Of a stretch of 64,000 nt of DNA, positions 16,179 to 64,000 are shown in pieces. The translations under genes and the position numbers were made by a program. The notes under the pieces are model-generated. The model saw only the letters and a list, made by a program, of their open reading frames with translations, was not told the origin of the DNA and searched no databases. The stretch's first letter is position 1. The number at the start of each line of letters is the position of its first letter. Origin of the DNA: Bacteroidota bacterium (GTDB taxonomy: Bacteria > Bacteroidota > Bacteroidia > M30B66); NCBI GenBank assembly GCA_947460255.1, contig CANHIS010000001.1:12113-76112 (forward strand), in the 5' to 3' direction.

Positions 16179-17423
16179 ATGATAAGATTCTGTATTCTCC
16201 TTCTACTAGCGTTCAGCACGAGCGCCATCGCGCAGATCAAAGGGAATCTCAGTGCGGGCATTGAATCCTTCACCGCTGGTGAAAACAGAATGAAAGTAAA
16301 CGATTGGAATGGAGCCGTGCTCGATTACTCAAATGCTATTGCTGCAGATCCAAGTTATGCTGAAGCTTACTACAAACGCAGTGTCGCGTTCACAAAACTG
16401 GGTAGATTCAAAGAAGCCATCAACGACCAAAATGAAGCGCTTCGCCTAAATCCGGGCATCTTGAAAATCTACGACGAACGGGCCAAATTAAGAATGCTTG
16501 TAGAAGATTACCCAGGTGCGGTTGCCGATTTTACAAAAGCCATTGAACTTACGCCAATCGTTCAGCCAAGTTTATTATGCCAACAAGCACATGCTCAACT
16601 TGCCGCAGAAGATTATGCAGGCGCAATCTCAACATTTAACGGAATCATCGAACAAAATCCACGCGACACACTTTCATACGTGTTTAGAGCTTTGGCTTAC
16701 CTAAATCTCGACGAACTTGAAAAGGCAGGCAACGATATAGATATGGCGATTCGGTTGAATCCCAAAAACTCTCTTGCTTACGAAGCTCAAGGTTTGCGTT
16801 ATCTCGAAATGAAAAAATTCGACGACGCAATTGCTTCTTTCACCAAAGTAATCAACATCAATCCGCAATTTGCTCTTGCATGGCACAATCGTGGAATTGC
16901 ATACAAGTTAAAAGGAGAAAACGACAAAGCCGATAAAGACCTTACCAAGGCCATTTCTTTGGATCAAAATCTTAAATCCACTTACTTCAGCAGGGCATTG
17001 ATTCGCAAACGCATGGGCGAAACAGAAGAATCTCTCAAAGATTACAACAACGCTTTAGCGCTCGACAAAGAATACACGCAAGCATTTTTCTATCGTGGAA
17101 TGGTGAAGAAAACATTGGGAGATTACCAAGGTGCAATAAATGATTTTGACGAGTCTATTCGGATCAATCCAAATGATGCTCAAGCATTTAACAACCGTGG
17201 CAACGTGAGAATGTTATTCGGAGATTACTCTCTGGCTGTGCAAGATTACGATCAAGCAATTAGATTGCACGAAGATTATGGAATTGCCTATTTTAACCGA
17301 GGAATTGCAAAGCTCATGCTCCTGAAAAGAGATTCAGCTTGCGACGATTTTAAACAAAGTGAACAATATGGATATGGAGCAGCAGCTGAAACCATCCGCG
17401 ATTTTTGCACACTGCAGCGTTAA
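16179..17423 (+). CDS. TPR-repeat protein with a signal peptide
   Basis: It contains many 34-aa repeats with an AxxYxxRGxAxxxxGxxxxAxxDxxxAxxxNP pattern. Confidence 0.8.
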   Translation: MIRFCILLLLAFSTSAIAQIKGNLSAGIESFTAGENRMKVNDWNGAVLDYSNAIAADPSYAEAYYKRSVAFTKLGRFKEAINDQNEALRLNPGILKIYDERAKLRMLVEDYPGAVADFTKAIELTPIVQPSLLCQQAHAQLAAEDYAGAISTFNGIIEQNPRDTLSYVFRALAYLNLDELEKAGNDIDMAIRLNPKNSLAYEAQGLRYLEMKKFDDAIASFTKVININPQFALAWHNRGIAYKLKGENDKADKDLTKAISLDQNLKSTYFSRALIRKRMGETEESLKDYNNALALDKEYTQAFFYRGMVKKTLGDYQGAINDFDESIRINPNDAQAFNNRGNVRMLFGDYSLAVQDYDQAIRLHEDYGIAYFNRGIAKLMLLKRDSACDDFKQSEQYGYGAAAETIRDFCTLQR

Positions 17424-49030: not shown

Positions 49031-51455
<2,425 letters not shown>

Positions 51456-51522
51456 AATCCTCAATAGTTTTGTTAAAAGTTTCGATAAACGAACCATAAC
51501 CTAAGGGCTTTACACACATCAG

Positions 51523-52944
51523 ATGAAAAAATATCTCGAAAAGAATTTTTTGGTTTCAATCAGCATTTTGGCCATCCTAATGCTTCCATTTCTATTACTT
51601 TCGAAATATAATCTTCCTTCATACGACGATTATGCGGTTCCCAATACACTGAATAAAATGGGGTACTTTCAAACCCAATGGCATTGGTATATCAACTGGA
51701 GCGGCAGATATTCTTCTAGTGCGATTATTGCACTCGTGCATCCGATGATTTATGCAAAGTCAGGTTTAGGGTTTTATGGGCTCTTTAGTACCGCTATACT
51801 GCTTGCTTTTGTAGCTTCATTATACAGATTCATTGCAGCTTTGATACCTGCGGCTAATAGCGGGTATAAATTGAGTACCCTTGCAGGCTTATTGTTTTTG
51901 TATTTATTTGAAATGCCCTCTCCAACCGAAGGTTTTTACTGGCTGGTTGGAGCATGGACTTATACTTTGGGTTTAATTATTGCGTTGGAGCTTGGATCAA
52001 GATTAATGGTTTATTCACAGAATAACAGCAAGTTACAACTTGGATACATTCTATTTCTGGCAATTTTAATACCTGGAACAAGCGAGGTAATCGATATCAT
52101 TTTCATTGCGAGCTATTGTCTGGTGCTTTCGCTGATGTTTCTTCAAAAAGGGAAAATTGATCGAATCCATTTAATTGTTTTAAGTGTTTTGGCGGTATTC
52201 ACGATGTTCTCTTTTCTAGCTCCAGGTAATTCTGTTAGAGCAATAAATGTGGTGGAATCAGGAGTGGCAAGCAAAGATCTAGCAGTTGTTTTGCCTGAAA
52301 CGATTAAGCTTGGCATCAAACACATGGTCCAATGGACTATTCTGGGGCCATTCTTGTTAATAGCTTTTTTAACTCTTTCGTTAAAATCTAAATTACGTAA
52401 CGATTTACTAAGCCTTGTTGATAACTGGATAAAGTTTGGTTATTGGATTTTCGCTAGCAACGGATTTGTTTTTGTGTTCATATTCCCTGTGCTTTGGTCT
52501 TCTGGAATTGCACCTGATCGCATTTTTAATCCCATCGCACTTTACTATATGATAGTGAGCTTGTTGAGCTTGATGTTTTTATTCAATCTGCTGAAAATTA
52601 GAAGCCTAGAAATTCCCATGCCAGCTGTAATCATGATAAGCCTTTTTCTATTCGGTTATACACTCTCTTCCCAGAACCGTATTTCCAGAACGTGGATAGA
52701 GTTGCGCAGTGGAGAGGCTAAAGCATACTATAACGAAATGCAGGAGATCTATTCTATGTGTAAAGAAAATCCAGGTAAAAAATTCGTAATGCGACCAATG
52801 CAGAATAGGCCAAACACAATTTTCATCAACGATTTACACGAAGATTCAACCCACTGGGAAAACCGCTTTTTCAGTAAATTTCATGGTATTGGTTCAGCCC
52901 GGACAGTCGATAGCACGGTTACTTATATTGAATCATTTCAGTAG
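51523..52944 (+). CDS. Polytopic membrane protein of unknown function, candidate GT-C-fold (Gtr-type / ArnT-like) glycosyltransferase
   Basis: It has about 11-13 TM segments. A DD motif (SYDDYAVPN) lies in the first predicted extracytoplasmic loop. It has a ~70-aa C-terminal soluble tail. It converges on the GtrA/GtrB-like operon. Confidence 0.35.
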   Translation: MKKYLEKNFLVSISILAILMLPFLLLSKYNLPSYDDYAVPNTLNKMGYFQTQWHWYINWSGRYSSSAIIALVHPMIYAKSGLGFYGLFSTAILLAFVASLYRFIAALIPAANSGYKLSTLAGLLFLYLFEMPSPTEGFYWLVGAWTYTLGLIIALELGSRLMVYSQNNSKLQLGYILFLAILIPGTSEVIDIIFIASYCLVLSLMFLQKGKIDRIHLIVLSVLAVFTMFSFLAPGNSVRAINVVESGVASKDLAVVLPETIKLGIKHMVQWTILGPFLLIAFLTLSLKSKLRNDLLSLVDNWIKFGYWIFASNGFVFVFIFPVLWSSGIAPDRIFNPIALYYMIVSLLSLMFLFNLLKIRSLEIPMPAVIMISLFLFGYTLSSQNRISRTWIELRSGEAKAYYNEMQEIYSMCKENPGKKFVMRPMQNRPNTIFINDLHEDSTHWENRFFSKFHGIGSARTVDSTVTYIESFQ

Positions 52945-53292
52945 GGAATAAATTCACAAAAATTGTTTCAGACTTTAAGTTGATTTTTGCTGGACATAGA
53001 TTCTTACTATAAACAATATCATAAAAGAAAAAAATTACGACAAAGCTAAAAAGGAATTGATTATATCACTTTTTGTGGTCGAGAAGCGTTTGTGAACTGT
53101 TTATTATCTATGCTTTGGTTTAAGAATACTACTGTTTAATAAAAGATAACTTATCCATCTTTCTGAAGCAAGTTATCTTGAAATTGGCAAAACCATATTC
53201 TGAAGAACAAAACAAATAATCAAATCCGCTATCTAAGATTTTACCTAGTTTATTGTGGCAAATAAACTTTGACTTGTTTTAACAATAACATT

Positions 53293-53736
53293 TCACTTTT
53301 CGGTTGAAGAAGTCGAAGGATATTGAAAATGAGCGCGAAGTCGGTCGAAAATGATGGTTGCGAAAACAAAATTCCATGCAACTGTGATAGGAATCACCAA
53401 GCAAGAATACACGAAGTCGGAATAATCTAGATATGATTTTAAAACTGAAATCATAGCCAATCCGAATAACATTCCAGAAAAATAGGCCAAATAAAATGCG
53501 CCTAAGTGTATCCAAGAAAACGACTTCTTAAATACCAATTTAGCATTGAGCAAATAGCTTACAAAGATGCTTAGTAGATAGACTATAGAATAGGCAATGT
53601 AAACCTGCCATTGAAGCACTTCCAAGAATAGATATAAGACTGCTGCCGAGGCTGCAGTCATAATCAATCCAACATTTGCAAACCCAATTAGGCGTTTTAC
53701 AAGCGGCTGGAAACGTGGACTAATTCTGGAAATCAT
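53293..53736 (-). CDS. GtrA-family small membrane protein (putative lipid-linked sugar flippase component)
   Basis: It has 4 TM segments and a GtrA-like N-terminal pattern ([27 protein letters not shown]). Confidence 0.6.
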
Positions 53737-54838
53737 TACAAACTTGAATCACCCTTTTAATTTCCTCAGGTAACATTACTGGGCTCATTGGCAAGCTAAT
53801 CACATCGTTGTGTATAGCTTCTGAAACTGGATAAACAAGATGATTCAATTCTTTGTAAGCCTGTTGCTTGTGAGGCGGAATTGGGTAATGAACTACCGTT
53901 TGAACTCCTTGATCTGCTAAGTAATCTTTGAACCTATCACGTAAACCATTCTTCAAACGAATGGCGAAAATATGCCAGATGTGCTCACCATAAGATGCTG
54001 CAACTGGAAGCTGGATCAGTGGATTACAAATTTCTGCCAAGTATTGTTGGGCCACTAGATTACGTTTTGCGTTTTCATCATCAAGATGGGATAATTTTAC
54101 CCCAAGCAAGGCTGCTTGGAGCTCATCTAGACGGCTGTTCACTCCTGGATATAAATTCTCGTACTTCACTTTAGAACCATAATTGTGAAGTGCCAATATG
54201 ACCTCTGCCAGTTGGTCATCGTTGGTTGTAATTGCGCCTGCATCTCCGAGGGCTCCAAGATTTTTGCCTGGATAAAAACTAAATCCAGCGGCATCACCAA
54301 GAGCTCCTGCTCTGATGCCTTTGTATTTCGCACCTTGAGATTGTGCAGCATCTTCAATGAGTTTCAGATGATGATTTGCACAAATATCCTTCAGTGGGCT
54401 CATGTCGGCAGTTTGACCATACAGATGTACCGCGAGAACTGCACGTGTTCTTGGCGTGATCAAACGTTCTACTTCAAGAGGATCCAGATTAAAAGTTGCT
54501 TCATCTGGCTCTGCCAAAACAGGCACTAAATTATTTCTTGAAATAGCTAAAACACTTGCTATATAGGTATTTGAAGGCACAATGATCTCATCACCATCCT
54601 TGAAAATCCCCATAGTTTTATAGGCTTCTATAATAAGAATTAGTGCATCTAATCCATTGGCGACTCCAATGCAATGCTTTACACCACAATAAGTTGCGAA
54701 ATCTTTTTCAAACTGCTCGAGTTCCTTTCCTTTGATGAACCAACCTGAATGCAAAACACGATGAAAAGCTTCTATCAGTTCAGATTCATATTGAAGATTG
54801 ATCCCTTTCAGGTCAAGGAATTTAACAGGAATGCTCAT
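53720..54838 (-). CDS. DegT/DnrJ/EryC1/StrS-family PLP-dependent nucleotide-sugar aminotransferase
   Basis: It has the fold-type-I pattern with the PLP lysine in [15 protein letters not shown]. Confidence 0.85.
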
Positions 54839-54840
54839 AA

Positions 54841-55836
54841 TTAAGAATTTAAAGGCTTCTCGTTAGGTTTCATACCAACAGCTTCATCTACCACAAAGTT
54901 TGGTCGATTTCTAGATGCGTCGAGTGTTCTCCAAACATACTCACCAATTATACCTAAGGCAATCATTTGAAATGACGACAGCAATAAAATCACTGCCATC
55001 AATGCCGCCCAACCCTTCACTTCGATGAAGCCACTCAGTCGAGCAAAGATAATTGCAATTCCATAAATGAATGAGATCAGACCCAAACCAATTCCCAAAA
55101 CTGTAATCAACCGAATTGGAAAAAAGGAGAATGACACAAATGCATCAATGAATAGCTTAATCTTTTTAGAAAGAGTCCACCGCGACTTTCCAATTTCACG
55201 TTTTAGTCGTGTATATGAGATGGTCACATAATCGAACTGAAGCCATGCAAAAAGGTAGGTTTGACTTGAGTTTTTTTCTGAAATCTTTACAACTTCGTGT
55301 TGGAGTTGTTTATCGAAGAGTACAACATCGAAACCATTTTCGGGTATGTTTTTCAACGCGTAACGTTTCATCATTTTGTGATAGAAGGAGGCAAAAAGCT
55401 TTTTAAAAAAACCCTCTTCTCGATCAGATCGATTGGCAATTACGAGCTTTACTCCATTCTGCCAATGGCTAAAGAGTCGCGGTATGAGTTCGGGTGGATC
55501 TTGCAAGTCGGCTGCAATCATGCAACAACAATCACCAGTTGCATAGTGCATTCCCGCCAACACAGCATTGTGCGATCCAACGTTACCAGCAAGCTTTATG
55601 ACTTTTACCCTGTCGGGATATTGCAAATGAAAATCGAATAAGCGTTGGTAGGTTTGATCTTTACTTCCATCATCTACAAACACATACTCCACCTCAGTTC
55701 CTTCTGGAAAACCTTTTTCGTTGTCGATCAGTTTGGCAGTTAGCGAAGGAATATTGCCTTCGTTATAGTAACACGGTATAATGATGCTGATTTTACTCAT
55801 TTTCTTCCTTAACTGATTAATACTAGTTGGAAGCAA
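54841..55836 (-). CDS. GT2 polyprenyl-phosphate glycosyltransferase (GtrB/ArnC/DPM1-like) with two C-terminal TM helices
   Basis: [12 protein letters not shown] ... VFVDDGSKD ... AADLQDP are GT-A motifs. It has a C-terminal membrane anchor. Confidence 0.8.
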
Positions 55837-56521
55837 TCACCAAAATTTCTGCACAAAGTTCAGGATAATCCTTGCCTAATTCATAGAAAGCCTGAATCAT
55901 ATCTTGTGAAAACCACTGTTCAATTTGACCATTAGCTAAAAATTTCAAAAACACTCCTGTTTCATGGCTGATAGAGAATCCAGCTTCGGTTAGATGAGCT
56001 TTCAACAAATCCATATCATACACTCGTTCATGACCTAACTGAAGGTCGCGTTCGTTGAGGCTATAAATGCTTTCAAGTAAGCCCATTTTCACTGCTACCA
56101 TGCGGTGGAATGACTTGGCATTGGGCACACCTACAATAAACTTACCGCCAGGTGAAAGCCAAGCGAGAATCTGCTTCAACAATGGAACTGGGTCAGCAAT
56201 ATGTTCCAACACATGGTTGAGGATGATGGTATCAAATTTTTCATCCGTTTGAAAATCTTGAAACAAACTACACACTTTCACAAGATTGGGCGCGTCTGCA
56301 ATTTTCTCAACAAGATCAGCAGCACCTTCAACAGCTACTACTCTTTCGAAATCGTTCAACAAAAACCGAGTCATATAACCCGATGATGGCCCTAGCTCTA
56401 AACAGTTTTTACCATGAAAATAAGGCTTCGCAGCCTCATAACAATAGGTAGTTAACTGGTAATCGATTTGCAGAATCTTATTTGAATAGAAACTAGCAAA
56501 ATTGTCAGGATGTGCGCTCAT
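55823..56521 (-). CDS. Class I SAM-dependent methyltransferase
   Basis: It has SAM motif I (CLELGPSSGYMT) and a Methyltransf_11-like layout. Confidence 0.75.
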   Translation of the reverse strand: MSAHPDNFASFYSNKILQIDYQLTTYCYEAAKPYFHGKNCLELGPSSGYMTRFLLNDFERVVAVEGAADLVEKIADAPNLVKVCSLFQDFQTDEKFDTIILNHVLEHIADPVPLLKQILAWLSPGGKFIVGVPNAKSFHRMVAVKMGLLESIYSLNERDLQLGHERVYDMDLLKAHLTEAGFSISHETGVFLKFLANGQIEQWFSQDMIQAFYELGKDYPELCAEILVIASN

Positions 56522-56530
56522 CGAAGAAAA

Positions 56531-57289
56531 TCAAGGATTGTAAATGAGGTAACCAGAATTGGCTCTAAATGGAGAGTGTTTTATTTCAAACGATGATGTT
56601 CCAAGAATTTCGCGCAGAGCTGCAGTTTCTCCCGGCCATTCTTTGTCGTTGATTTCATCAAATCCGATCACTGCACCTCTATTCAAATAAGGTTTAATCG
56701 CCTTTAAACACTCTGCAGTAGGCTTGTAAATGTCGAAATCAAAATAAGCCATCGATATGATAGTTTCTGGATGAGCTTCTAGATACTGGTGAACAGTTTC
56801 AGTTGCATCGCCTTTCACCAATTCGAATTTCTTGATGCTTTCAACAGGAGCTAATTTTTCGTGTGTGAGCAAAATATGCTCTAGATACTGCTCATATCCT
56901 TCAGGCACATTAAAATCTCCTGCCTTCCACTTTTCGGTATCTACTGCTTCAACATCAGGGAATCCAGAAAATGTATCAAAGCCAACAATTTTCCGGTTGT
57001 GATTAAATGGCTCATAAATACCACGCATTGAAGTCAATAGCGCAAGATTTTGCCCATAACGTACTCCAAATTCAAAAATAGACCCATGCAATTTCATTTG
57101 TGCAGTGTATAGTTCTTGCACATATAAAAAACGTGAAAACAAGCGTCGGTCGATGTACAACCCAATATTTAGCAAAATTTCCTCCTTAGGAATTGGTGAG
57201 CTAAATAGCAATTCTTTGAGCTGACTTCTGTTCGCGAAATCCTCAGGATTCAATCGTTTCTGTTGTTCGCTATCGTGGGTAAAATTCAT
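56531..57289 (-). CDS. TylF/MycF-family (macrocin-O-methyltransferase-like) sugar O-methyltransferase
   Basis: FEFGVRYGQN and VGFDTFSGFPD are motifs characteristic of the TylF family. Confidence 0.65.
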   Translation of the reverse strand: MNFTHDSEQQKRLNPEDFANRSQLKELLFSSPIPKEEILLNIGLYIDRRLFSRFLYVQELYTAQMKLHGSIFEFGVRYGQNLALLTSMRGIYEPFNHNRKIVGFDTFSGFPDVEAVDTEKWKAGDFNVPEGYEQYLEHILLTHEKLAPVESIKKFELVKGDATETVHQYLEAHPETIISMAYFDFDIYKPTAECLKAIKPYLNRGAVIGFDEINDKEWPGETAALREILGTSSFEIKHSPFRANSGYLIYNP

Positions 57290-57522
57290 GCGTTTGCTTT
57301 CTTTTGAATGAGGTCAAGTAAAATATGCACCGATTTTATAGATTCGATTTCTTCTGGAGTAAATTGAAAATTCAATTGATCTTCCAATTCAACAATGAGA
57401 TTCAAATGGTTTATAGAATCCCATTCTGGAAGGTTCTCCTTACTTGTTTCCGAATTAATCGAAACATCTGAAGAAAAGGCATTTCTAAATATTTCTTGAA
57501 GCTGTTCGATTGTTATTGCCAT
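57286..57522 (-). CDS. Discrete acyl carrier protein
   Basis: It is a 78-aa acidic four-helix pattern with the phosphopantetheinylation motif LPEWDSINHLNL. Confidence 0.75.
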   Translation of the reverse strand: MAITIEQLQEIFRNAFSSDVSINSETSKENLPEWDSINHLNLIVELEDQLNFQFTPEEIESIKSVHILLDLIQKKANA

Positions 57523-59042
57523 ATCGGGTCTTTTGAAAGTTGAAGATAGAAATCCTCAGCGGGTTTATTTCTATCTGTTTTAACAAATTCGAATTGATTA
57601 ATTGAAAGTCCTTGTTGTTGAAATTCGCTGTAAACATAGTTCAGAAAATCAGATTCGATGCGCCTTCCCAATGCTCTGCAGCTCATTAAAAAATTATGGA
57701 GGATAAAGGATTCGTCGTTTTTCAATAATAAGATAACGCCAACCAAGCCATAATCTCCGTATTTATCGGAAACTCGCAAGGTATATATTCGATTTCCCGA
57801 GGTTGAAAGTTCTAAAATTTCAGCAGGGGAATAAGCAATTTTATTAAAATTAAATTGATTGGTCTTCTGCGTTAATTGGGAAACCCTTTCAAAATCTCCT
57901 GCATCGTTACAACGAATATCCAGTTTGATCGATAAGCTTTTAATGTAATCTTCCATCGAACCAAAAGAGGCTTCATCAAGCTTTCGTGAAGCTTCTTCAA
58001 CATACTGCTGATGCTTTCTCAGGTCTTCAGCACTGAGGTGTTTCCTTTTGAAAAGAAAAGAATCGATGGTTACTAAAAAATCTGAATAATCTTTTTTCAC
58101 CTGAAAAACACTGACTTCAGGAAGCAATGAGCGAACACTTTGGACTTCAAAATCGCTATCATCTAAAAAGATGAGTGAATCCGTTCCAATGTTTAATGCA
58201 ACAGCAATAGAGCGCAAATTCATTGATTTATCCTCCCAATTCACTTTTTTCAAAATGAAATCATCCCATTTCAATGGCATGTTGAGGGTATCGAAAGCTT
58301 CTTTTACATCATTTTCATTATTCTTGGAACAAAGACATAAAAGGAAACCCAAGTTTTTGCGCTCAATTAAAAATTGTTGGAGGTGATAGAATAAAATCCC
58401 TTCGTGACTTAAATCGCAACGAATTCCTGACAATCCATCTTCGCCAATTATCCCATTCCAAAGCGTATTGTCGCAGTCTAATACAATAACTTTTTTCTCT
58501 GGTTGATGAAGGAAATCGGTCCATTGGTTTATCATTGATGCAAAAGCACCAATTGCCCTTTTATTGTAAGGCATCTGATAAAGATGGCCTAACGAATACG
58601 TATAGATATTTGAATATCCGATCAAACGGAATTGTTCATCAATGTTCAGCCAATAAAAGTTCGGCAATACATTAAGTTTTTCAACCTCTTGGTGAAGTAA
58701 CTGCCAAGCATCTTGAACACCATTTATACCTTTCGAAAGTATTGCTTTGGGATAAGGTAGTTCGATTAAATCCGAGCATAAAATATTCACCGATGTGTTC
58801 TTGCACAAAAACTCTATTTGCTTAAGCAATCCTGCAATCTTTTCAGTTGTGTGTTTTTTAAACCGAACATCTGTATGGATTATTATCAAATCATAAGATT
58901 GCAATTTTACCGGTTCGGTTGAATGCAATCCGCCTAAGAGATCCTCATGATAAGCAATTTCAATTTGGTGTTTACCATCTTGTTGGAGCAATTTTGCAAC
59001 GGGCTCCAATACAATATCCGAGAGAAAAAATATTTTCATCAC
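57513..59042 (-). CDS. FkbH-like protein (HAD-superfamily subfamily IIIC) with an N-terminal extension
   Basis: Motifs seen are VIVLDCDNTLWNGIIGEDG, LCSKNNENDV, KVNWEDKSMNL and LIFLDDSDFE. These match the HAD-IIIC/FkbH core. Confidence 0.75.
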   Translation of the reverse strand: MMKIFFLSDIVLEPVAKLLQQDGKHQIEIAYHEDLLGGLHSTEPVKLQSYDLIIIHTDVRFKKHTTEKIAGLLKQIEFLCKNTSVNILCSDLIELPYPKAILSKGINGVQDAWQLLHQEVEKLNVLPNFYWLNIDEQFRLIGYSNIYTYSLGHLYQMPYNKRAIGAFASMINQWTDFLHQPEKKVIVLDCDNTLWNGIIGEDGLSGIRCDLSHEGILFYHLQQFLIERKNLGFLLCLCSKNNENDVKEAFDTLNMPLKWDDFILKKVNWEDKSMNLRSIAVALNIGTDSLIFLDDSDFEVQSVRSLLPEVSVFQVKKDYSDFLVTIDSFLFKRKHLSAEDLRKHQQYVEEASRKLDEASFGSMEDYIKSLSIKLDIRCNDAGDFERVSQLTQKTNQFNFNKIAYSPAEILELSTSGNRIYTLRVSDKYGDYGLVGVILLLKNDESFILHNFLMSCRALGRRIESDFLNYVYSEFQQQGLSINQFEFVKTDRNKPAEDFYLQLSKDPIWQ

Positions 59043-59434
59043 AAATGGTTTGGATCAATTAAAAATTCAACAACCTGTTGATTTCTTGTGTAGTAAAAAA
59101 CAACTTCTTTGCCTTCGAAAAGTATAGCAGGAACGGGGCCTAACACTTTTATCATTCTTAATTGGATGGCGTAATCCTCCGCAATTTTGATGTCGTTCAC
59201 GGTATAACAAAAGTGGTGAAAATGATTCCCGTTCTTTTGCAATGCATTCCACGTAAAAGCTGAATTTCCTAATGGTTGAATCAATTCAATTAAGACATCA
59301 GAATGGTTGTTGTAGAGCGCCAAACGAGCATTTTGTATAGGATCTTCAACACTTGCAACACACTCACCCAATGGATGTTTCTTCGCATACTGAGCAATGT
59401 CGGCCACTACAAATCCTGTATGGTGTAATTTCAT
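59039..59434 (-). CDS. VOC-family (glyoxalase / methylmalonyl-CoA-epimerase-like) protein
   Basis: MKLHHTGFVVADI is a glyoxalase-fold N-terminus. It is 131 aa. Confidence 0.65.
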   Translation of the reverse strand: MKLHHTGFVVADIAQYAKKHPLGECVASVEDPIQNARLALYNNHSDVLIELIQPLGNSAFTWNALQKNGNHFHHFCYTVNDIKIAEDYAIQLRMIKVLGPVPAILFEGKEVVFYYTRNQQVVEFLIDPNHL

Positions 59435-60027
59435 CCTGCGAAGCGAGCAATTAATTGATCAATTTTAGTGTAATTGAAACCTTGATAAGCCTCCTGGGTA
59501 ATTCCTTGGACATGCAAATCGAAATTAGTTTGCGGGTCGAATTCATTTCCACAGTCGGTAAATCCGAACCGGAGATGCTGTCTCCATACAGCTTCATTTG
59601 ATTCTGCAGTGCGGCAATATAGATACTTCAAACCAATCTCTTCAAAAGCAATTTGAAGTATCATTCTTTCGGATTCAACAGCCTGAACGGCTTGTGTACA
59701 AACATATCTGCCAAATTCTCCAGATCCATTTTTAATGTTATAAATGGAAATGGTTCCAACAGGAATTTCATTTAGGTTGAGGATCATGAAATAATGTTGA
59801 TCAGTAGCCTCCAAATTTTTCCGCAACCAAGCCAATTGATCTTCTATTGTAAGGGGCTTGCTGGATGATAAAAATCGATTAATAGATGGATTGTTGCGCA
59901 TTTCAATTATAGCAGCAGCATCTTCTTCAGTAACCGAACGAAGGATGGTATTTTTCCCTTTAAACTGTTTTTTCATTTCGGTATTGAAGAAATTCATCCA
60001 TATCTCTGATGTAATCATTTGCTTCAT
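59431..60027 (-). CDS. GNAT-family N-acyltransferase (RimL/RimJ-like). An alternative start lies near 59976.
   Basis: It has the GNAT fold pattern. The first ATG overlaps the upstream cupin by 68 nt, so an internal start is likely. Confidence 0.7.
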   Translation of the reverse strand: MKQMITSEIWMNFFNTEMKKQFKGKNTILRSVTEEDAAAIIEMRNNPSINRFLSSSKPLTIEDQLAWLRKNLEATDQHYFMILNLNEIPVGTISIYNIKNGSGEFGRYVCTQAVQAVESERMILQIAFEEIGLKYLYCRTAESNEAVWRQHLRFGFTDCGNEFDPQTNFDLHVQGITQEAYQGFNYTKIDQLIARFAG

Positions 60028-60391
60028 AAGTGTGAGAAGCCAGCACTAAGCAAACAGCACCTGAAGAAAAATTAACTTCTTCGGCCCAAACCCCTGGAGG
60101 AATATGCAAGCCCATGTATGGTCGATTAAGCTGCACTTGACGCTTAATAGCTCCATCGAATAGAATGACTTCGAAGCTCCCACAAACTGCAACCAAAAAT
60201 TGATGACATGTGTAATGCGCGTGAGCTCCACGATTTTCACCGCCTGGAATGTCGTATAAATAAAATACACGATTAACGTCAAACGACAAATGACGAGAAT
60301 TCTCTACGTAGGTTAAATTCCCTCTATCGTCTTTGATCTTTGGAAGATAAATCAACTCACAATTGTAAACGGTTGGCAATTTATTATCCAT
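59960..60391 (-). CDS. FdtA/QdtA/WxcM-like cupin (dTDP-4-keto-6-deoxyhexose 3,4-ketoisomerase family), copy 2
   Basis: DDRGNLTYVE ... IPGGENRGAHAHY ... matches the WxcM-like domain. I moved the start to ATG 60391 (MDNKLP), which overlaps the upstream cupin stop in ATGGATAA. Confidence 0.7.
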   Translation of the reverse strand: MDNKLPTVYNCELIYLPKIKDDRGNLTYVENSRHLSFDVNRVFYLYDIPGGENRGAHAHYTCHQFLVAVCGSFEVILFDGAIKRQVQLNRPYMGLHIPPGVWAEEVNFSSGAVCLVLASHTYEANDYIRDMDEFLQYRNEKTV

Positions 60392-60782
60392 GTGCGATAA
60401 AGGATTTAAATTGGTCGTAATCCCTGATATAGTCCGACTCGTCGTAAACTTCAGATGCTGAAACAAGGCAAACTGCGTTGGTAGAAAAATTTTGCAAACT
60501 TCTCCAAGTTCCTGCAGGTAAATACAATGCATTGTATGATCTATTCAAGGAAAAAATCTCCGATCCAGTTCTTCCCTCTACGTGTACATCAAAGCTGCCC
60601 GACAATGCAATTACAATTTCTTGCAATGACTTGTAGGCATGTCCTCCACGTGTTTCACCACCTGGAACATCGTAAATCCAATAAGTACGTTTTATCTCAA
60701 AAGGAATTTGATTAGCACTTTCGAAAAAAGACAGGTTGCCTCTGCGATCTATAATCTTGGGTAATTGTATAATTTTCACCAT
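60384..60782 (-). CDS. FdtA/QdtA/WxcM-like cupin (3,4-ketoisomerase family), copy 1
   Basis: DRRGNLSFFE ... VPGGETRGGHAYK ... matches the WxcM-like domain. Confidence 0.7.
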   Translation of the reverse strand: MVKIIQLPKIIDRRGNLSFFESANQIPFEIKRTYWIYDVPGGETRGGHAYKSLQEIVIALSGSFDVHVEGRTGSEIFSLNRSYNALYLPAGTWRSLQNFSTNAVCLVSASEVYDESDYIRDYDQFKSFIAHG

Positions 60783-60798
60783 GCCTGAAACTAATGCA

Positions 60799-60806
60799 CA
60801 AATATA
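60799..60806 (-). promoter_or_regulatory. Bacteroidetes -7 promoter element (TAtaTTTG) driving the cupin-to-GtrA operon
   Basis: The minus strand reads TATATTTG, 16 nt upstream of the ATG at 60782. This sits in a 330-bp AT-rich spacer. Confidence 0.45.
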
Positions 60807-61112
60807 TAAAGTTCGATGATGCTTCCTAAGGCTTAATGATGATTGTAAATGATGTGAATTTCTTTAAAAACAAGTGGCAAATCGATTTAAAAATCATGAG
60901 GAAAACAAAATCGAAAGGATCACTTATTATTGGGGAATGTAGATTTGTAAAACAATAAATTCATGAAGAACAAAGACTTTTCAGACCCTTATAAACCAAC
61001 TTGAGTTTCAACTTCGATTTTCAAGACTACTACAATTAGGTCAGAAAGACCAAAGCTGCATGCGATCTTTTGAGATCGATATTGTCATCAAATCAGACAC
61101 AAAAATCAAACT

Positions 61113-61994
61113 CTATGATTTAATGTTAATTAAACTCGAATGTTCACTAATCCTGAAACACATCCTCGAAAAATCGAACACTCTTTTATTTCTGTTAAAT
61201 AATAAAAGACCTAACAAACTGAATAATATTAAAAAGAAAAATGTAAGAATATAAAACCATTTTGAACCTAAAGATAAACTAGTCAAAACAACTACGCTAA
61301 AAAATGAAATCAAGAGAAACACACCTTTAACACTTGAAAAGAATGCCTCTAAAGCATAATTAACCTTCCTGAAAAACGTCCACTGCGATTTCCCCCTCTT
61401 TCTTGCCCGGCGTTCATAAGGCAAAAATGATTTAATGGCATTTAACTGAATAACATCGCCTTGGAGAAAACTCCTACCAGTTCTGATGCAATTAAATTCA
61501 TCAATTGCTTTACGATCCAAGCCGAAGAAATCAAACCCTCCAAATGGTATTCTTGGATAAATTAACCTAATCGACTTATAGAAAGCTGCCGAGAAAAACC
61601 GGTCTATCCAACGATCTTCCCGTGAAGTTCTAAAACAAATAATCACTTCAAAGCAAGCTTCCCAGCTTCTCAAGATCTCTTGAATCATCTCTACTGGATC
61701 TTGCAAATCGGCCGACATAACAACTGCTAAATCCCCTTTACAGTGCTTCAAACCAGCCTGAATAGCAGGAACTTGACCGTAATTTCTATCAAATGATAAA
61801 TATTGAACGCGTGAATCATTGGAATTTAATTTCTTGATGATTTCCAACGATTCGTCATCAGATCCATCATCAACAAAAATCAATTCGGGTTTTAAGTCAG
61901 GCTGTTTGTTAAACACACCTAGCAATTCACTGTACAGCTCTATTAAAGTAGAAGCGTTGCGAAAAACAGGAACAACTACCGAAACAATCTTCAT
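61113..61994 (-). CDS. GT2 polyprenyl-phosphate glycosyltransferase (GtrB/ArnC-like), second copy, with C-terminal TM helices
   Basis: VVVPVFRNASTL ... IFVDDGSDDES ... SADLQDP are GT-A motifs. It has C-terminal hydrophobic helices. Confidence 0.8.
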   Translation of the reverse strand: MKIVSVVVPVFRNASTLIELYSELLGVFNKQPDLKPELIFVDDGSDDESLEIIKKLNSNDSRVQYLSFDRNYGQVPAIQAGLKHCKGDLAVVMSADLQDPVEMIQEILRSWEACFEVIICFRTSREDRWIDRFFSAAFYKSIRLIYPRIPFGGFDFFGLDRKAIDEFNCIRTGRSFLQGDVIQLNAIKSFLPYERRARKRGKSQWTFFRKVNYALEAFFSSVKGVFLLISFFSVVVLTSLSLGSKWFYILTFFFLILFSLLGLLLFNRNKRVFDFSRMCFRISEHSSLINIKS

Positions 61995-62623
61995 TTTCTT
62001 GTAACAATTCTTGCAGGATTACCATAAGCCATCACGCCATTGGGAAGATCTTTTGTAACTACCGAACCTGCACCAACAGTAACGAAATCGCCAATCTTCA
62101 CGCCTGGTAAAACAATTGATCCCGCTCCTAGAAAAGATTGTGTACCAACTTTAGACTTGCCCAATAACTTGACTCCAGGCCCAATTTCAGCAAAATCGCC
62201 AACGCTCACTTGATGGGTAACCATGCTGCCTAAATTGAGAATAACTCCTTTTCCAATTGAGCAAGTCGGCTCAACTATCGCTTGTGCTAAACAAATAACT
62301 CCCGATAGATTGTTCAATAAACCAGTTGGTAAAACAGCTGATGGATCAATTACAGAAGTGAGCGTCCCTCCAATTTTTTCAAACCGCTCGCACATTTCAG
62401 CTCTATTCGTTCTAACGCCCGTGCCTAAACAAAACCTATTATCTACGGTTTCCAAATAGTGTTTTGCCAATTGTACAGACCTCAACAATTTAAACTGTTG
62501 ATTTAAATGCGTATCGACTTGAAATTCAGGATCGCAGAAAAAAGCTGGATTTAATGTAGCATCCATTCGTTGCATGGCGAACAAAACCTGATTGGCAAAA
62601 CCTCCTGCACCTAAAATTAACAT
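61991..62623 (-). CDS. NeuD/PglD-family hexapeptide-repeat sugar N-acetyltransferase
   Basis: It has an N-terminal Rossmann-like MLILGAGGFANQV and a C-terminal left-handed beta-helix of hexapeptide repeats. Confidence 0.75.
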   Translation of the reverse strand: MLILGAGGFANQVLFAMQRMDATLNPAFFCDPEFQVDTHLNQQFKLLRSVQLAKHYLETVDNRFCLGTGVRTNRAEMCERFEKIGGTLTSVIDPSAVLPTGLLNNLSGVICLAQAIVEPTCSIGKGVILNLGSMVTHQVSVGDFAEIGPGVKLLGKSKVGTQSFLGAGSIVLPGVKIGDFVTVGAGSVVTKDLPNGVMAYGNPARIVTRK

Positions 62624-63699
62624 CCTGATTGAATTATCAATTCGGAAATAAAATTCACGTCCTTCTCCGTTAAATCAGGACTTAAGGGCAAACACAGCAC
62701 TCGTTTCGACAAATCGGTAGATGTGTCGTTGATCAAATTGTTGTTCACATAATTTAATCGATTCAACGATGGATAAAAATATCTCCTCGGGAAAATTTGT
62801 TTGTCTGCAAGAACTGAACGAGCTGCTAGCAAGCGTTCTTCCGAAGAAAATAAAACTGGAAAATAAGCATGGTTAACTCGCGTAGTTCCTTCTTGAATCT
62901 GCATCATTTGTAAGCCAGAGTTGAACAAGCGATCTTGATAAAAACCTACAACCTTGCTTCGTTTTTCGATAATTTCATCCACATAAGGAAACACCGAAAG
63001 CCCCATTGCTGCTTGAAATTCTGAAGCTTTGGCATTAATTCCAATCCCAAAAAAATCTTCAGGTCCGTTGTAACCAAAATTTCTCATATAGCCGATTTTG
63101 TGAGCTACAGCATCGTTGTTGGTTACCAAAGCTCCACCCTCGATTGTATGAAAAATCTTTGTTGCATGAAAACTCAATACGGTAACATCACCGTAAGAAG
63201 CTAAAGGTTTTCCTTTATAATCTACTCCAAATGCATGTGCTCCGTCGAAAATTAAAGGGATTTCATATTCTTCAGCGATTTCGGTCAATGCCTCTATTTC
63301 ACAAGGATTTCCGTATACGTGTGTTGCCAAAATAGCTTCAACCTCTGAAGTCAATTCTGCTCGAATTGAGGTAGGTGAAATAGTAAAAGTCTTTGGGTTT
63401 ATGTCTGCAAAAACTGGCTCAACACCTTCCCAAACCATAGCGCTTGTGGTAGCTACACATGAAAATGGCGTGGTGATAATTTTCTTCTGAATACCGAGAG
63501 CCTTCGCTGCAATTTGCAAGGCCATCGTGCCATTTGTTACAAAAAATACATGTTTTACCTGCAAATAATCTGCAAGCACTTTTTCAAGTTCTAAAACCAA
63601 AGGACCATGATTTGTTAGCTGCCCACGCTCCCAAATTCCTTTCAGATATTCGATGTACGAATCTAACGGTGGTAAAAAAGATTTGGTAACCTGAATCAT
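62617..63699 (-). CDS. DegT/DnrJ/EryC1/StrS-family sugar aminotransferase (PglE-like)
   Basis: It has the fold-type-I pattern with a lysine in SFHATKIF. Confidence 0.85.
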   Translation of the reverse strand: MIQVTKSFLPPLDSYIEYLKGIWERGQLTNHGPLVLELEKVLADYLQVKHVFFVTNGTMALQIAAKALGIQKKIITTPFSCVATTSAMVWEGVEPVFADINPKTFTISPTSIRAELTSEVEAILATHVYGNPCEIEALTEIAEEYEIPLIFDGAHAFGVDYKGKPLASYGDVTVLSFHATKIFHTIEGGALVTNNDAVAHKIGYMRNFGYNGPEDFFGIGINAKASEFQAAMGLSVFPYVDEIIEKRSKVVGFYQDRLFNSGLQMMQIQEGTTRVNHAYFPVLFSSEERLLAARSVLADKQIFPRRYFYPSLNRLNYVNNNLINDTSTDLSKRVLCLPLSPDLTEKDVNFISELIIQSGC

Positions 63700-64000
63700 C
63701 CTTCAATCAAGTGAAATTATTTGTTGAAGAAAGCTTCATCATATCTAATTCCATCAATTGCAAATATATCCAAACCATTAATTACCTAATAAAAGAATTG
63801 AATTGCTGTTTATTTAAACAATCAGTGAATAATTTCCTATTCTACTGCTAATTCACGGCACGAATTTGGTAATATTGCGCGGTCATACATATAAATACAG
63901 CTTTTTAACAAATTCAAATGAGTCAGTCGCTGAAATCGCTTTTTGCCGAAGTTATCCATCCACATGCTGCAGCCGTTAAGCAAATGGTAGCCGAACACGG

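Follow-up and report, generated by a model that had tools for sequence, protein, structure and literature searches.

A probable chromosomal three-component (Gtr-type) periplasmic glycosylation island in Bacteroidota, with a transferase gene that is swapped between closely related strains

Background

Three-component glycosylation systems have reportedly been treated in general terms by Mann and Whitfield in 2016. Their members, which include the Gram-positive CsbB/GtcA/YfhO systems and Pgf of S. mutans, combine a polyprenyl-phosphate sugar synthase, a small flippase and a GT-C (Kelly et al. 2024, PMC11127046). In Salmonella enterica the gtrABC family III operon (STM0559-STM0557, O:12-2 glucosylation) has a GT-C partnered with GtrA and a GtrB-type GT2; its donor genes are preserved between close strains in which the GT-C has diverged extremely, and the divergent GtrCs share one donor (PMC3688519). 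The Arn pathway (ArnB/ArnC/ArnE-F/ArnT) equips lipid A with aminoarabinose: an ArnC-type GT2 uses the nucleotide amino sugar to load Und-P, a small flippase then carries the product outwards, and a GT-C completes the transfer in the periplasm.

Two further loci are relevant to the sugar itself. In wxc region 3 (wxcK-wxcO) of Xanthomonas campestris, WxcN is GtrA-like and WxcL is GtrB-like. An FdtA/WxcM-type isomerase and a DegT enzyme (WxcK) lead there to a dTDP-3-amino-3,6-dideoxyhexose, the region produces 3-acetamido-3,6-dideoxy-D-galactose side branches of the O-antigen with the help of the small membrane protein WxcN, and the side branch is lost in wxcK and wxcN mutants (PMC4878081). The flagellin-glycosylation genes near cj1302 of Campylobacter jejuni are known from strains that make 2,3-di-O-methylglyceroyl nonulosonic acids (PMC7099621, PMC3068675, bioRxiv 10.64898/2026.04.20.719630).

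The stretch of DNA analyzed here (the window, 64,000 nucleotides) carries a locus which is probably a chromosomal island for periplasmic glycosylation of the three-component (Gtr) type in Bacteroidota, and which as such is a further example of a well-known mechanism. The host has a periplasm, as shown by a T9SS cargo gene and a gene for a DUF5723 protein in the window and by homologues that come from Bacteroidota.

Results

Layout of the island

The island comprises 16 genes in 12 kb (51523-63699), is flanked by eno and gltA, and contains two donor modules. The minus-strand operon of module A, which runs upstream as far as 60782, holds two FdtA isomerases, a DegT enzyme, an FdhC-like GNAT, FkbH, ACP and VOC proteins, two methyltransferases, GT2-A and GtrA; module B, which reaches 63699, consists of a DesI-like aminotransferase, a NeuD/PglD-family acetyltransferase and GT2-B. 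The gene for a GT-C membrane protein faces the module A operon across a spacer of 348 bp and, being convergent, is not co-transcribed with it. The island is without wzx, wzy, waaL or an initiating transferase, that is, without any acceptor-pathway gene, and its setting in the eno-gltA interval shows no prophage or tRNA context.

A preliminary description of this DNA had reported a trio of GtrA, DegT and GT2 genes opposed by a GT-C gene. All four open reading frames were found where it had placed them, and chance is no concern for them because they are long and their family matches are strong. The trio is not self-contained, as the island around it is larger and has two modules with Und-P-sugar synthases, but its interpretation as a three-component system is supported by the score of the GtrA profile, by a full-length GtrB/ArnC-type GT2 and by the linkage of GT-C and GT2 genes in six contexts.

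Candidate Bacteroidota-type -7 promoter boxes (TAnnTTTG) lie approximately 50 nt 5' of the GT-C start (TAGTTTTG, 51465..51472, plus strand), upstream of the first gene of module A (TATATTTG, 60799-60806, from the motif list) and upstream of the first gene of module B (TATATTTG, 63761-63768, from inspection of the sequence). Three such motifs were found, where approximately 0.23 would be expected for the three upstream regions together; they are to be read as candidates.

The GT-C membrane protein

The gene at 51523..52944 (plus strand) encodes a GT-C-fold membrane glycosyltransferase of 473 aa which belongs to Pfam PF19528 (DUF6056/GT_STM0557_N) and not to the ArnT/PMT_2 family. Some gene callers use an alternative start that gives 454 aa, but the 19 additional N-terminal residues of the 473-aa form are conserved in homologues and belong to TM1, which makes the longer form preferable. 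The topology was taken from the positive-inside rule and the helices of the structural model, rather than from a dedicated predictor. Twelve long helices are seen in the model, of which 11 are most likely transmembrane. The DD motif that had been assigned to the first extracytoplasmic loop is D35-D36, in the loop after TM1, which is predicted to be periplasmic; the pair is invariant in 19 homologues, and constant acidic residues at this place are a hallmark of GT-C enzymes. The soluble C-terminal tail is likewise present, as a region of approximately 90 aa that is predicted to be periplasmic.

The fold comparison had been set beforehand as the test of the GT-C assignment, and its top structural matches are GT-C enzymes (TM-score 0.35-0.47, compared to approximately 0.12 for transporters), with no Wzy, WaaL or transporter structure among them. 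These matches are at the level of the fold, with 6-11% identity, and give no means of telling acceptor classes apart. A search of solved structures by sequence with the 473-aa protein returned no match.

Comparison with other genomes

GT-C genes of this family have GtrB-like GT2 neighbours in six gene contexts, the window and five others, which between them involve GT2s of three non-orthologous types, flippases of two types (GtrA and EamA-like) and two phyla. The arrangement of the window recurs in the loci L002/L003 and L017, and in L017 the 3' ends of gtrA and the GT-C gene overlap. In L004 the GT-C gene is convergent with a set of EamA-like 4-TM protein, DegT and GT2, in L009 (39% GT-C identity) it is directly convergent with a module-B-like GT2, a PglD-like enzyme and a 360-aa DegT, and in L011 (Oscillospiraceae) the GT-C, GtrB-like GT2 and EamA-like genes lie in series. 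The GT-C gene is also adjoined by an Acyl_transf_3 gene in L002 and by polysaccharide genes in L004. L018 holds module A, including its GT2, with no GT-C nearby, and more distant PF19528 members (approximately 27% identity) are found within large glycosyltransferase clusters or alone, with no GtrA near.

The genomes of L002 and L017 are congeneric with the window. Compared to L017, identity is 98.5% for RpoA, 97.0% for enolase and 96.6% for GT2-A, but 24.7% for the GT-C, and DNA similarity is interrupted from 51455 to 53338, a segment made up of the GT-C gene, the spacer between the genes and the last gtrA codons; compared to L002, the values are 90% for GT2-A and 51.4% for the GT-C. Closely related strains differ by exchange of the transferase gene, and at the level of sequence identity the combination of a conserved GT2-A with a divergent GT-C corresponds to the Salmonella GtrC pattern. 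GT2-B, in contrast to GT2-A, is strongly divergent between the window and L017, as the GT-C is.

Genes of module A

The last gene of module A (53293..53736, minus strand), which overlaps the DegT gene by 17 nt, encodes a GtrA-family 4-TM protein of 147 aa, a candidate Und-P-sugar flippase. It has four hydrophobic segments, and its score against Pfam GtrA_DPMS_TM (E 2.4e-11, 44.3 bits) exceeds the gathering threshold of 26.1, so the GtrA call stands. The gene is 74.7% identical in L017 and absent from the otherwise near-identical L002 island, and is therefore dispensable or replaceable.

GT2-A is a GtrB/ArnC-type polyprenyl-phosphate glycosyltransferase according to structure, PHROG and NCBIfam profiles. 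Its open reading frame spans 54841-55836 (minus strand), but the ATG at 55800 (54841..55800, 319 aa) is the more likely start because it fits the N-termini of the GtrB profile and is used by gene callers. The GT2 domain is followed by two C-terminal TM helices, which confirms the membrane anchor described earlier, and by the tail motif GEYxWR..RPxF. The match is full length to Synechocystis GtrB (5ekp, 1.9e-52), and extends to ArnC structures (1e-34) and PHROG GtrB (3.9e-71); the NCBIfam profiles PgfS (2e-53, 182 bits against a cut-off of 500) and ArnC (8e-43) are both under their equivalog cut-offs.

The DegT-family PLP aminotransferase (53720..54838, minus strand, 372 aa; Pfam DegT_DnrJ_EryC1, E 7e-108) is a predicted dTDP-3-keto-6-deoxyhexose 3-aminotransferase. 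Its best solved relatives are 5u1z (2e-131), QdtB 3frk (5e-115) and 2oga (4e-96), with ArnB at just 6e-39, and it scores 189 bits on the ArnB equivalog against a cut-off of 631. Structures and equivalog scores thus replace the ArnB-like enzyme of the preliminary description by a WlaRG/QdtB/FdtB-type 3-aminotransferase in an FdtA-GNAT pathway.

The remaining genes of the module are all on the minus strand. The first encodes FdtA/QdtA-type cupin copy 1 (60384..60782; Pfam FdtA 1.3e-49, FdtA 2pa7 7.6e-30), which has HAY instead of the HAH motif kept by copy 2, an FdtA/QdtA-type 3,4-ketoisomerase (59960..60391; PDB 5tpu 1.8e-32, FdtA 2pa7 3.9e-30). These are followed by an FdhC/PseH-like GNAT N-acyltransferase (59431..59976; Pfam Acetyltransf_3 6.6e-17, FdhC 5kta 1.9e-12, PseH 1.8e-8) and by a VOC/glyoxalase-fold protein that weakly resembles methylmalonyl-CoA epimerase (59039..59434; Pfam Glyoxalase_4 6.5e-10, PDB epimerase 6e-5). 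The FkbH-like HAD-IIIC protein (57513..59039; TIGR01686 FkbH domain 2.3e-78, 263.6 bits against a cut-off of 146.65) has more than 5,204 homologues, those named being from Bacteroidia MAGs. The founders of the FkbH family load a glyceryl unit onto an ACP, and the C. jejuni cassette is assigned to the glyceroyl group. A candidate acyl-carrier-protein-like gene of 78 aa (57286..57522), which is also called as a gene, was recognized by its position and by the DS motif in EWDSINHLNL. The two methyltransferases are a CalS11-like nucleotide-sugar O-methyltransferase (56531..57289; full-length match at 5.3e-60 to CalS11, the TDP-rhamnose 3'-O-methyltransferase, 4gf5/3tos) and a class I SAM-dependent enzyme (55823..56521; Pfam Methyltransf_23, E 7.6e-17).

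Genes of module B

Module B, also on the minus strand, begins with a DesI-like sugar 4-aminotransferase (62617..63699; TIGR04427 PLP_DesI 3.3e-75, under the equivalog cut-off; PDB 2po3 5.7e-51), followed by a NeuD/PglB/VioB-family hexapeptide sugar N-acetyltransferase (61991..62623; TIGR03570 8.9e-46, 156 bits, slightly under the cut-off of 160.8). GT2-B (61113..61994) is a further polyprenyl-phosphate glycosyltransferase of GtrB-like type, again with two TM helices (PHROG GtrB 2e-44, NCBIfam PgfS 1.9e-41), 47% identical to the GT2 that adjoins the GT-C in L009. In alignment its C-terminus is divergent and shortened, without the GEYxWR..RP motif that other GtrB-like enzymes keep.

Discussion

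In the most likely reading, an unusual amino sugar with an acyl group is made on a lipid carrier, flipped across the inner membrane and joined to a glycan of the cell surface. Which genes are present, their families, the fold, the conserved motif, the linkage and the replacement of the GT-C between strains are observed, whereas all catalytic steps, and likewise the donor, acyl group and acceptor, are predicted. From the family assignments we infer that the FdtA/QdtA-type enzymes would isomerise dTDP-4-keto-6-deoxyglucose, after which the sugar would be aminated at C-3 by the DegT enzyme, N-acylated by the FdhC-like GNAT and O-methylated by the CalS11-like enzyme. The FkbH-like enzyme would probably assemble the acyl group on the small ACP, which would make this group glycerate-derived and possibly O-methylated. 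By analogy with GtrB, GtrA and GtrC, GT2-A would move the finished sugar to undecaprenyl phosphate, GtrA would assist its flipping to the periplasmic face, and the PF19528 GT-C, via D35/D36 in its first periplasmic loop, would move it to a periplasmic acceptor, most likely a lipid-linked O-antigen-like or other surface polysaccharide. Module B probably yields a second Und-P-linked sugar, a 4-acetamido-4,6-dideoxyhexose, which could feed this GT-C or one encoded elsewhere.

The donor is ambiguous because the island has two GtrB-like GT2s and one GT-C, and it is possible, if doubtful, that the real donor is this module-B product of DegT2, the NeuD/PglD-like acetyltransferase and GT2-B, with the module-A sugar being used by a GT-C elsewhere, or that both sugars are used. 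In L009 a module-B-type set alone adjoins the GT-C, L018 holds module A with its GT2 and no GT-C near, and GT2-B shares with the GT-C a strong divergence from L017 that GT2-A does not show. Since divergent Salmonella GtrCs share one donor, however, the divergence of the GT-C says nothing about the donor that it uses; furthermore, the operon that abuts the GT-C in the window, L002 and L017 is module A, in which gtrA is the last gene, and in these genomes GT2-B has the short C-terminus described above.

With module A as the preferred source of the donor, the nature of the acceptor and of the transferase must be weighed. An action on glycoproteins, either as decoration of the O-glycans made by the general protein O-glycosylation system of Bacteroidota or as direct protein glycosylation of the PMT/Streptococcus Pgf type, with an acceptor that is not an LPS-type polysaccharide, is unlikely: the PgfS score is far under its cut-off, the structural matches are at fold level, the sole characterised locus tied to PF19528 modifies O-antigen, and the GT-C adjoins Acyl_transf_3 in L002 and polysaccharide genes in L004. 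An Arn/Flm/Lgm-type modification of lipid A or core with a cationic amino sugar that alters surface charge and antimicrobial peptide resistance is very improbable, because the DegT enzyme is approximately 90 orders of magnitude nearer to dTDP-3-keto-6-deoxyhexose 3-aminotransferases than to ArnB, the scores fall far short of the ArnB and ArnC equivalog cut-offs, the GT-C is of PF19528 rather than ArnT/PMT_2, the island has no ArnA- or ArnD-like gene, and the FdhC-like N-acyltransferase and FkbH/ACP predict an acylated, uncharged amine. A sugar with an N-acylated amine would be neutral, and the Arn-style argument of the preliminary description from surface charge and antimicrobial peptides is therefore not transferable. 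Convergent orientation, the 348-bp spacer, separate candidate promoters and distant family members without GtrB or GtrA neighbours would all be compatible with a chance adjacency, in which the PF19528 protein uses an unrelated donor made elsewhere and the GT2s serve another pathway, but this is highly unlikely in view of the recurrence of the neighbourhood in six contexts with three GT2 types, two flippase types and two phyla, and of the tail-to-tail overlap in L017. The 473-aa protein can hardly be a polymerase of the Wzy type, a ligase of the WaaL type or a transporter; it is a polytopic membrane protein without a cytoplasmic catalytic domain and matches no solved structure by sequence, but the top structural matches, the low TM-scores of transporters and the invariant acidic pair in the first loop all argue for a GT-C.

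Comparison with known systems

The likeness to Salmonella gtrABC family III lies in the partnership of a GT-C with GtrA and GtrB-type proteins and in the strain-level divergence of the GT-C; PF19528 is named after STM0557, the Pfam family name being the whole of that link. The island differs in its donor, predicted to be a tailored N-acyl amino-dideoxyhexose instead of glucose, in a GT-C gene that is convergent instead of third in a gtrABC operon, in its lack of a prophage or tRNA context, in its two GtrB-like genes and in its host, a member of the Bacteroidota. The isomerase and DegT enzymes recall those of Xanthomonas wxc region 3, which belongs to another phylum and in which the N-acyl group is acetyl, whereas a larger acyl group and O-methylation are predicted here (FdhC-like GNAT, FkbH, ACP, VOC, methyltransferases). 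With the Arn pathway the island shares the order of steps from nucleotide amino sugar to periplasmic GT-C, and a relationship to ArnC and ArnT can be detected in structure or sequence, but none of its aminotransferase, GT2 and GT-C passes the Arn equivalog tests. The island also lacks ArnA and ArnD, its predicted product is N-acylated and neutral, and there is no indication of lipid A as the acceptor. The C. jejuni cj1302 region likewise has an FkbH-domain gene in a glycan locus, in a strain with a methylated glyceroyl N-acyl group (PMC7099621, PMC3068675, bioRxiv 10.64898/2026.04.20.719630), and by gene description the comparable set here is FkbH, ACP, epimerase-like VOC, methyltransferase and GNAT; there, however, a CMP-nonulosonic acid is used in the cytoplasm, as opposed to an Und-P-linked hexose. 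From three-component systems generally the island does not differ in principle: the mechanism is already known, and it is the donor-sugar pathway and the host phylum that differ from those of the known members.

Fold and family of the 473-residue membrane protein

In its general mechanism the locus is probably a three-component periplasmic glycosylation system in the sense defined in PMC11127046, and the four ORFs that a preliminary description had assigned to a Gtr/Arn-like set were all found at the coordinates proposed for them. The transferase candidate, here called the GT-C protein, is encoded by a 473-aa ORF at 51523-52944 (+), the stop codon of which lies 348 bp from that of the 147-aa GtrA ORF. 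One gene caller picked a 454-aa form, and the longer form is preferred because its first 19 residues are conserved among homologues and are part of TM1. The sole Pfam match is to PF19528 (DUF6056) and is full length (E 1.2e-18; 67.6 bits against a gathering threshold of 27), covering residues 10-461 of the protein and positions 6-439 of the 442 in the profile. The newer name of this family, GT_STM0557_N, is used in the annotation precomputed for this gene on ENA contig k141_1538623, to which the window belongs. In Salmonella Typhimurium, STM0557-STM0559 form a gtr operon of GtrC family III, the product of which is an alpha-1,4-linked glucose on O-antigen galactose, giving factor O:12-2 (PMC3688519; PMC13505456). 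The tie between the GT-C protein and STM0557 is by Pfam family name. No NCBIfam or PHROGs model matched either the GT-C protein or GtrA, and a literature search on DUF6056 gave one mention, which was unrelated. The family is nevertheless large, since a search with the GT-C family profile returned 11,844 clusters (at 50% identity) at E<=1e-3.

A sequence search of the GT-C protein against PDB chains returned only noise (E above 2), so that a fold comparison was needed. In the AlphaFold2 model built from 19 homologues (mean pLDDT 90.3, pTM 0.91), the Foldseek matches include STT3, PglB, AftB and DPY19 at TM scores of 0.35-0.47 with probabilities of at least 0.54, and the probability is near 1.0 for the top 14 matches. 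No Wzy, WaaL or transporter fold competes, the transporters reaching a TM score of about 0.12, and the possibility that the protein belongs to one of these classes is scarcely credible. The 473-aa protein is thus, on its modelled structure, a glycosyltransferase of the PF19528 family with the GT-C fold that the preliminary description had proposed.

The residues that are invariant in the alignment of 19 sequences are P32, D35, D36, W59, G61, Y63, Y85, W140, Y147, G185, P234, G235, R239, R333 and W445. In the model, D35-D36 opens the first of two short helices after TM1, the site at which GT-C enzymes carry their catalytic acidic residue. The chain is inferred to cross the membrane 11 times, from an inside N-terminus to an outside C-terminus, supposing that the amphipathic helix 253-272 is periplasmic and does not cross the membrane; the earlier count of about 12 segments is lowered accordingly, this helix being taken as lying on the surface. 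Under the 11-helix topology every invariant polar residue is periplasmic and the short loops rich in K and R are cytoplasmic. Both marks of a three-component transferase, the GT-C fold and a conserved acidic residue within extracytoplasmic loop 1, are present.

Donor genes and limits of the island

The small membrane protein opposite the GT-C gene (147 aa; 53293-53736, -) was rightly called GtrA, as it exceeds the Pfam GtrA_DPMS_TM threshold (44.3 bits against 26.1); it has the four hydrophobic segments of a small multi-TM flippase candidate, and its ORF overlaps that of the DegT aminotransferase by 17 nt. The closest solved relatives of the latter (372 aa; 53720-54838, -) are 5u1z/5u21 (2e-131), 7n63, QdtB 3frk (5e-115) and 2oga, all of which are aminotransferases acting at C-3 of dTDP-3-keto-6-deoxyhexoses. 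Identity with ArnB was rejected, the ArnB match reaching merely 6e-39 against 2e-131 for 5u1z.

The GT2 gene just upstream of DegT, GT2-A, extends over 54841-55836 (-) if read from a TTG or over 54841-55800 if read from an ATG; the ATG at 55800, which gives 319 aa, is the more likely start, since it is used by the gene callers and aligns at residue 2-3 of GtrB profiles. GT2-A matches Synechocystis GtrB 5ekp (1.9e-52) and the ArnC structures (1e-34) over its full length, as well as the phage GtrB family phrog_841 (3.9e-71), and it contains an ADLQDPPE motif, two C-terminal TM helices and a GEYxWR..RPxF tail. It therefore has the GT2 domain and C-terminal TM helices of a polyprenyl-phosphate glycosyltransferase, which bears out the membrane-anchored GT2 first described. 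It falls under the PgfS and ArnC equivalog cut-offs, and is therefore a member of the family but an orthologue of neither.

The idea that these four genes form a self-contained unit had to be abandoned, because the operon runs on upstream and a second module follows. The genes upstream of GT2-A in this operon (module A) lie tightly packed on the same minus strand and encode a class I methyltransferase (55823-56521), a CalS11-like TDP-sugar O-methyltransferase (56531-57289; 5.3e-60), a 78-aa ACP-like protein with the motif EWDSINHLNL (57286-57522), an FkbH-domain protein (57513-59039; TIGR01686 at 2.3e-78, above the cut-off), a VOC-fold protein with a weak likeness to methylmalonyl-CoA epimerase (59039-59434), a GNAT protein (59431-59976) and two tandem FdtA/QdtA-type 3,4-ketoisomerases, copy 2 (59960-60391) and copy 1 (60384-60782). 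After a gap of 330 bp, module B comprises three further minus-strand genes, namely GT2-B (61113-61994), a NeuD/PglB/VioB-family acetyltransferase (61991-62623; 156 bits, just below the cut-off of 160.8) and a DesI-like 4-aminotransferase (62617-63699). GT2-B is GtrB-like, with two TM helices, and has every feature of a polyprenyl-phosphate glycosyltransferase except the C-terminal motif. The GEYxWR..RPxY motif, conserved in GT2-A and in the GtrB-like enzymes of loci L009 and L018 from other genomes, is likewise missing from the GT2-B orthologues of two congeneric genomes (L017 6177-7034; L002 17064-17416), which are 285-295 aa long and keep the two TM helices.

The island as a whole has 16 genes and is limited to 51523-63699, since module B ends against citrate synthase (gltA) and housekeeping genes, while its opposite border faces enolase, carA and the ribosomal-protein/rpoA operon. 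Neither wzx, wzy or waaL nor a gene for an initiating transferase is found in it. Each of its three units is preceded by a TAnnTTTG box, the Bacteroidota -7 promoter consensus, at 51465-51472 (+) for GT-C, 60799-60806 (-) for module A and 63761-63768 (-) for module B. These three exceed the roughly 0.23 expected in correct orientation over about 620 bp, although the motif is not enriched over the whole window (47 seen, 65 expected). The boxes are treated as candidate Bacteroidota promoters only. Scans of 51300-53800 for sigma-70 promoters and intrinsic terminators gave counts at or below shuffle expectation, no significant inverted repeats hinting at an invertible promoter were found, and the single Rfam match in the window is a tRNA gene (4375-4446, -), with no rRNA.

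The host is a T9SS-bearing Bacteroidota, as indicated by a T9SS cargo gene with DUF4886, PKD and Por_Secre_tail domains (17359-18666, +), a DUF5723 protein in the window, and the taxonomy of the homologues, the named ones being MAGs of Flavobacteriia, Cytophagia and Bacteroidia. At the start of the window, a 530-aa ORF with no Pfam match (22-1614, +) overlaps by one base the next ORF, which encodes a 796-aa outer-membrane protein with DUF5723, thrombospondin-type-3 and OmpA domains (1614-4004, +).

Predicted donor sugars

A 3,4-ketoisomerase, a 3-aminotransferase and an N-acyltransferase are all present in module A, as in the N-acyl pathways of Fuc3N and Qui3N; RmlA and RmlB are absent from the island. 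The FdtA Pfam match is at 1.3e-49, and both cupin copies match 2pa7/5tpu/QdtA. The best solved relative of the GNAT protein is FdhC, the N-acyltransferase that adds a 3-hydroxybutanoyl group to dTDP-Fuc3N, and this match (1.9e-12) is weaker than the others in the pathway and is to be read at the family level. The predicted product of module A, starting from dTDP-4-keto-6-deoxyglucose, is accordingly a dTDP-3-amino-3,6-dideoxyhexose with N-acyl and O-methyl groups, which GT2-A would load onto undecaprenyl phosphate. Module B is predicted from its genes to yield an Und-P-linked 4-acetamido-4,6-dideoxyhexose. Of the cupins, copy 2 retains HAH (RGAHAHY) and copy 1 has HAY (RGGHAYK); if HAH is the paired-histidine motif of FdtA/QdtA, the activity of copy 1 may be changed or lost. 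The tandem pair is also kept in L002, L017 and L018.

Least certain in this pathway is the acyl group. The founding members of the FkbH family charge an ACP with a glyceryl unit. In Campylobacter jejuni strains producing 2,3-di-O-methylglyceroyl nonulosonic acids, an fkbH-domain gene, cj1302, is part of the locus for flagellin glycosylation (PMC7099621; PMC3068675; bioRxiv 10.64898/2026.04.20.719630). On these two grounds a glycerate-derived, possibly methylated acyl group is tentatively favoured for module A, with rather less than even confidence. No literature match was found for FkbH together with O-antigen. Since the amine is predicted to be N-acylated, the sugar should be neutral; the amino sugar of the preliminary description is thus retained as a prediction, and the proposed change in surface charge and in susceptibility to antimicrobial peptides is not.

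Genomic neighbourhoods and strain-level variation of the GT-C gene

Over the loci listed here, which do not amount to a genome-wide statistic, the GT-C gene adjoins a GtrB-like GT2 in six contexts: the window itself (L001), L002/L003, L004/L005, L009, L011 and L017. L002/L003 (GT-C 51-52% identical) have the same island without gtrA, of which neither tblastn nor blastn detected a remnant in L002, and with an extra Acyl_transf_3 gene upstream of GT-C. In L004/L005 (49%) GT-C converges on a different operon, which encodes a 121-aa EamA-like 4-TM protein, DegT, WbqC, PhyH, one hexapeptide transferase and one methyltransferase, and a GtrB-like GT2 of 313 aa. In L009 (39-40%) eno and GT-C converge directly on a GT2 of module-B type, a PglD-like enzyme and DegT, and in L017 (25%) the whole island is present, with gtrA and GT-C overlapping tail to tail. 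In the distant L011 (Oscillospiraceae), a PF19528-like gene with the motif NHPSYDDYG has immediately behind it the genes for a GtrB-like GT2 and for a small membrane protein of EamA-like type. The small flippase candidate therefore varies among relatives: in two of these loci (L004 9501-9866; L011 12584-12994) a small EamA/ArnE-F-like 4-TM protein stands in GtrA's place, apparently by non-orthologous replacement.

The partners of GT-C thus span three non-orthologous types of GtrB-like GT2, two kinds of small flippase candidate and two phyla, and it is very unlikely that the adjacency of GT-C and donor genes is coincidental. The PF19528 family is not always in the trio arrangement, as its distant members (about 27% identity) lie within large glycosyltransferase clusters in Flavobacteriaceae and, in one Hymenobacter case, alone. 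A single-protein scan of genome contigs with GT-C found no relative, and a scan with the close-clade alignment found five distant relatives only, which indicates that GTDB species representatives lack the GT-C clade.

The strongest indirect argument for the role of GT-C comes from closely related strains. The hosts of L017 and L002 are very near that of the window (RpoA 98.5% and enolase 97% identical), and identity to the window is 96.6% and 90.0%, respectively, for GT2-A, 82.0% and 76.5% for DegT, 74.7% for GtrA in L017 (absent from L002), 51.6% for GT2-B in L017, and only 24.7% and 51.4% for GT-C. DNA similarity between the window and L017 extends up to the enolase stop codon (51454), is lost over 51455-53338, which holds the GT-C gene, the spacer and the final gtrA codons, and is back at 53339. 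This suggests, from sequence comparison, that the GT-C gene has been exchanged while the donor machinery was kept. In Salmonella, GtrA and GtrB are conserved and the GtrC families, under 18-46% identity or similarity, set acceptor and linkage (PMC3688519). The same combination of conserved GtrA/GtrB with a highly divergent transferase among close relatives is found here, and by this analogy GT-C would be the specificity-determining transferase on a conserved donor supply.

The island is mosaic between congeneric genomes, with a swapped GT-C allele (25% or 51% identical), and an Acyl_transf_3 gene occupies different positions in L002 and L017 and is absent from the window. In L018 (8253-14192; Bacteroidia MAG GCA_035429925.1) a nine-gene FdtA-FdtA-GNAT-VOC-FkbH-ACP-MT-MT-GT2 cassette recurs intact, DegT, GtrA and GT-C being absent from its vicinity. 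A Por_Secre_tail gene and PorV adjoin it, and to connect it with glycans that anchor T9SS cargo would be pure speculation.

Significance

In Proteobacteria, the textbook route to O-antigen seroconversion and to the decoration of lipid A is three-component periplasmic glycosylation, and the same holds in Firmicutes for the decoration of teichoic acids and rhamnans. The present locus places Gtr-type logic in an uncultured Bacteroidota lineage and provides a concrete gene context for a very large, mostly unannotated GT-C family. Judging from gene content, three features appear to be new, namely the Bacteroidota setting, the elaborate FkbH/ACP-linked donor tailoring, and the pairing of one strain-variable GT-C with two donor modules. 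If GT-C is indeed exchanged, then environmental Bacteroidota vary their surface glycans strain by strain, in the manner of GtrC in Salmonella, with phages or grazers as the presumed selective pressure, and with a neutral donor the consequence would be antigenic or phage-receptor variation rather than resistance to cationic peptides.

A more specific conjecture, which must be considered unlikely as a whole, is that FkbH, ACP, VOC, the methyltransferases and GNAT build an N-acyl group, derived from glycerate and possibly O-methylated, on a 3-amino-3,6-dideoxyhexose that is delivered via Und-P, GtrA and GT-C, the strain-variable GT-C cassette serving as a chromosomal, non-phage "serotype switch" which draws on two Und-P-amino-sugar donors. 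If true, three-component systems would gain a new donor class, and the N-glyceroyl amino sugars of Bacteroidota a genetic basis. The conserved set of genes running from FdtA via FkbH/ACP/GNAT to GT2 is a candidate for the genetics of glyceroyl-type N-acyl sugars.

Alternative readings and comparison with known systems

The acceptor is a surface polysaccharide of O-antigen type with roughly even probability, a reading suggested by analogy with the sole characterised locus tied to PF19528, which modifies O-antigen, and by the Acyl_transf_3 gene beside GT-C in L002 and the polysaccharide genes beside it in L004. A glycoprotein acceptor is distinctly less likely. It is also possible, though somewhat doubtful, that module B, or both modules, feeds the GT-C donor, which would be compatible with the main reading. 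Lipid A modification of Arn type, the analogy first drawn for this locus, is improbable, because the ArnB, ArnC and ArnT tests failed: the ArnB profile gives 189 bits where 631 are required and the ArnC profile 146.6 where 529 are required, while the GT-C protein matches PF19528 only and not the PMT_2/ArnT Pfam family. Neither ArnA nor ArnD is present, the island containing no formyltransferase/decarboxylase or deformylase, and the prediction for the amine is that it carries an acyl group.

Identity with a phage gtrABC cassette is excluded by orientation, gene order and context: phage cassettes have co-directional gtrA-gtrB-gtrC on a prophage or remnant beside a tRNA, whereas here GT-C is convergent, the order is GT2-DegT-GtrA, and the island is bordered by gltA at one end and by eno, carA and the ribosomal-protein operon at the other, without phage genes. 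A phage origin is also unsupported by tblastn of GT-C against 50,697 phage records, which gave a single weak unannotated match (24% identity, E 3e-5). The donor of Salmonella GtrC family III is glucose, whereas the donor genes here predict an amino-dideoxyhexose. For the predicted module-A sugar the nearest functional precedent is region 3 of the Xanthomonas wxc cluster, where the O-antigen receives its 3-amino-3,6-dideoxyhexose side branches only if a pathway of DegT/FdtA type and a small membrane protein are both functional (PMC4878081). With three-component systems as a class, the locus agrees at every sequence- and structure-level test of membership.
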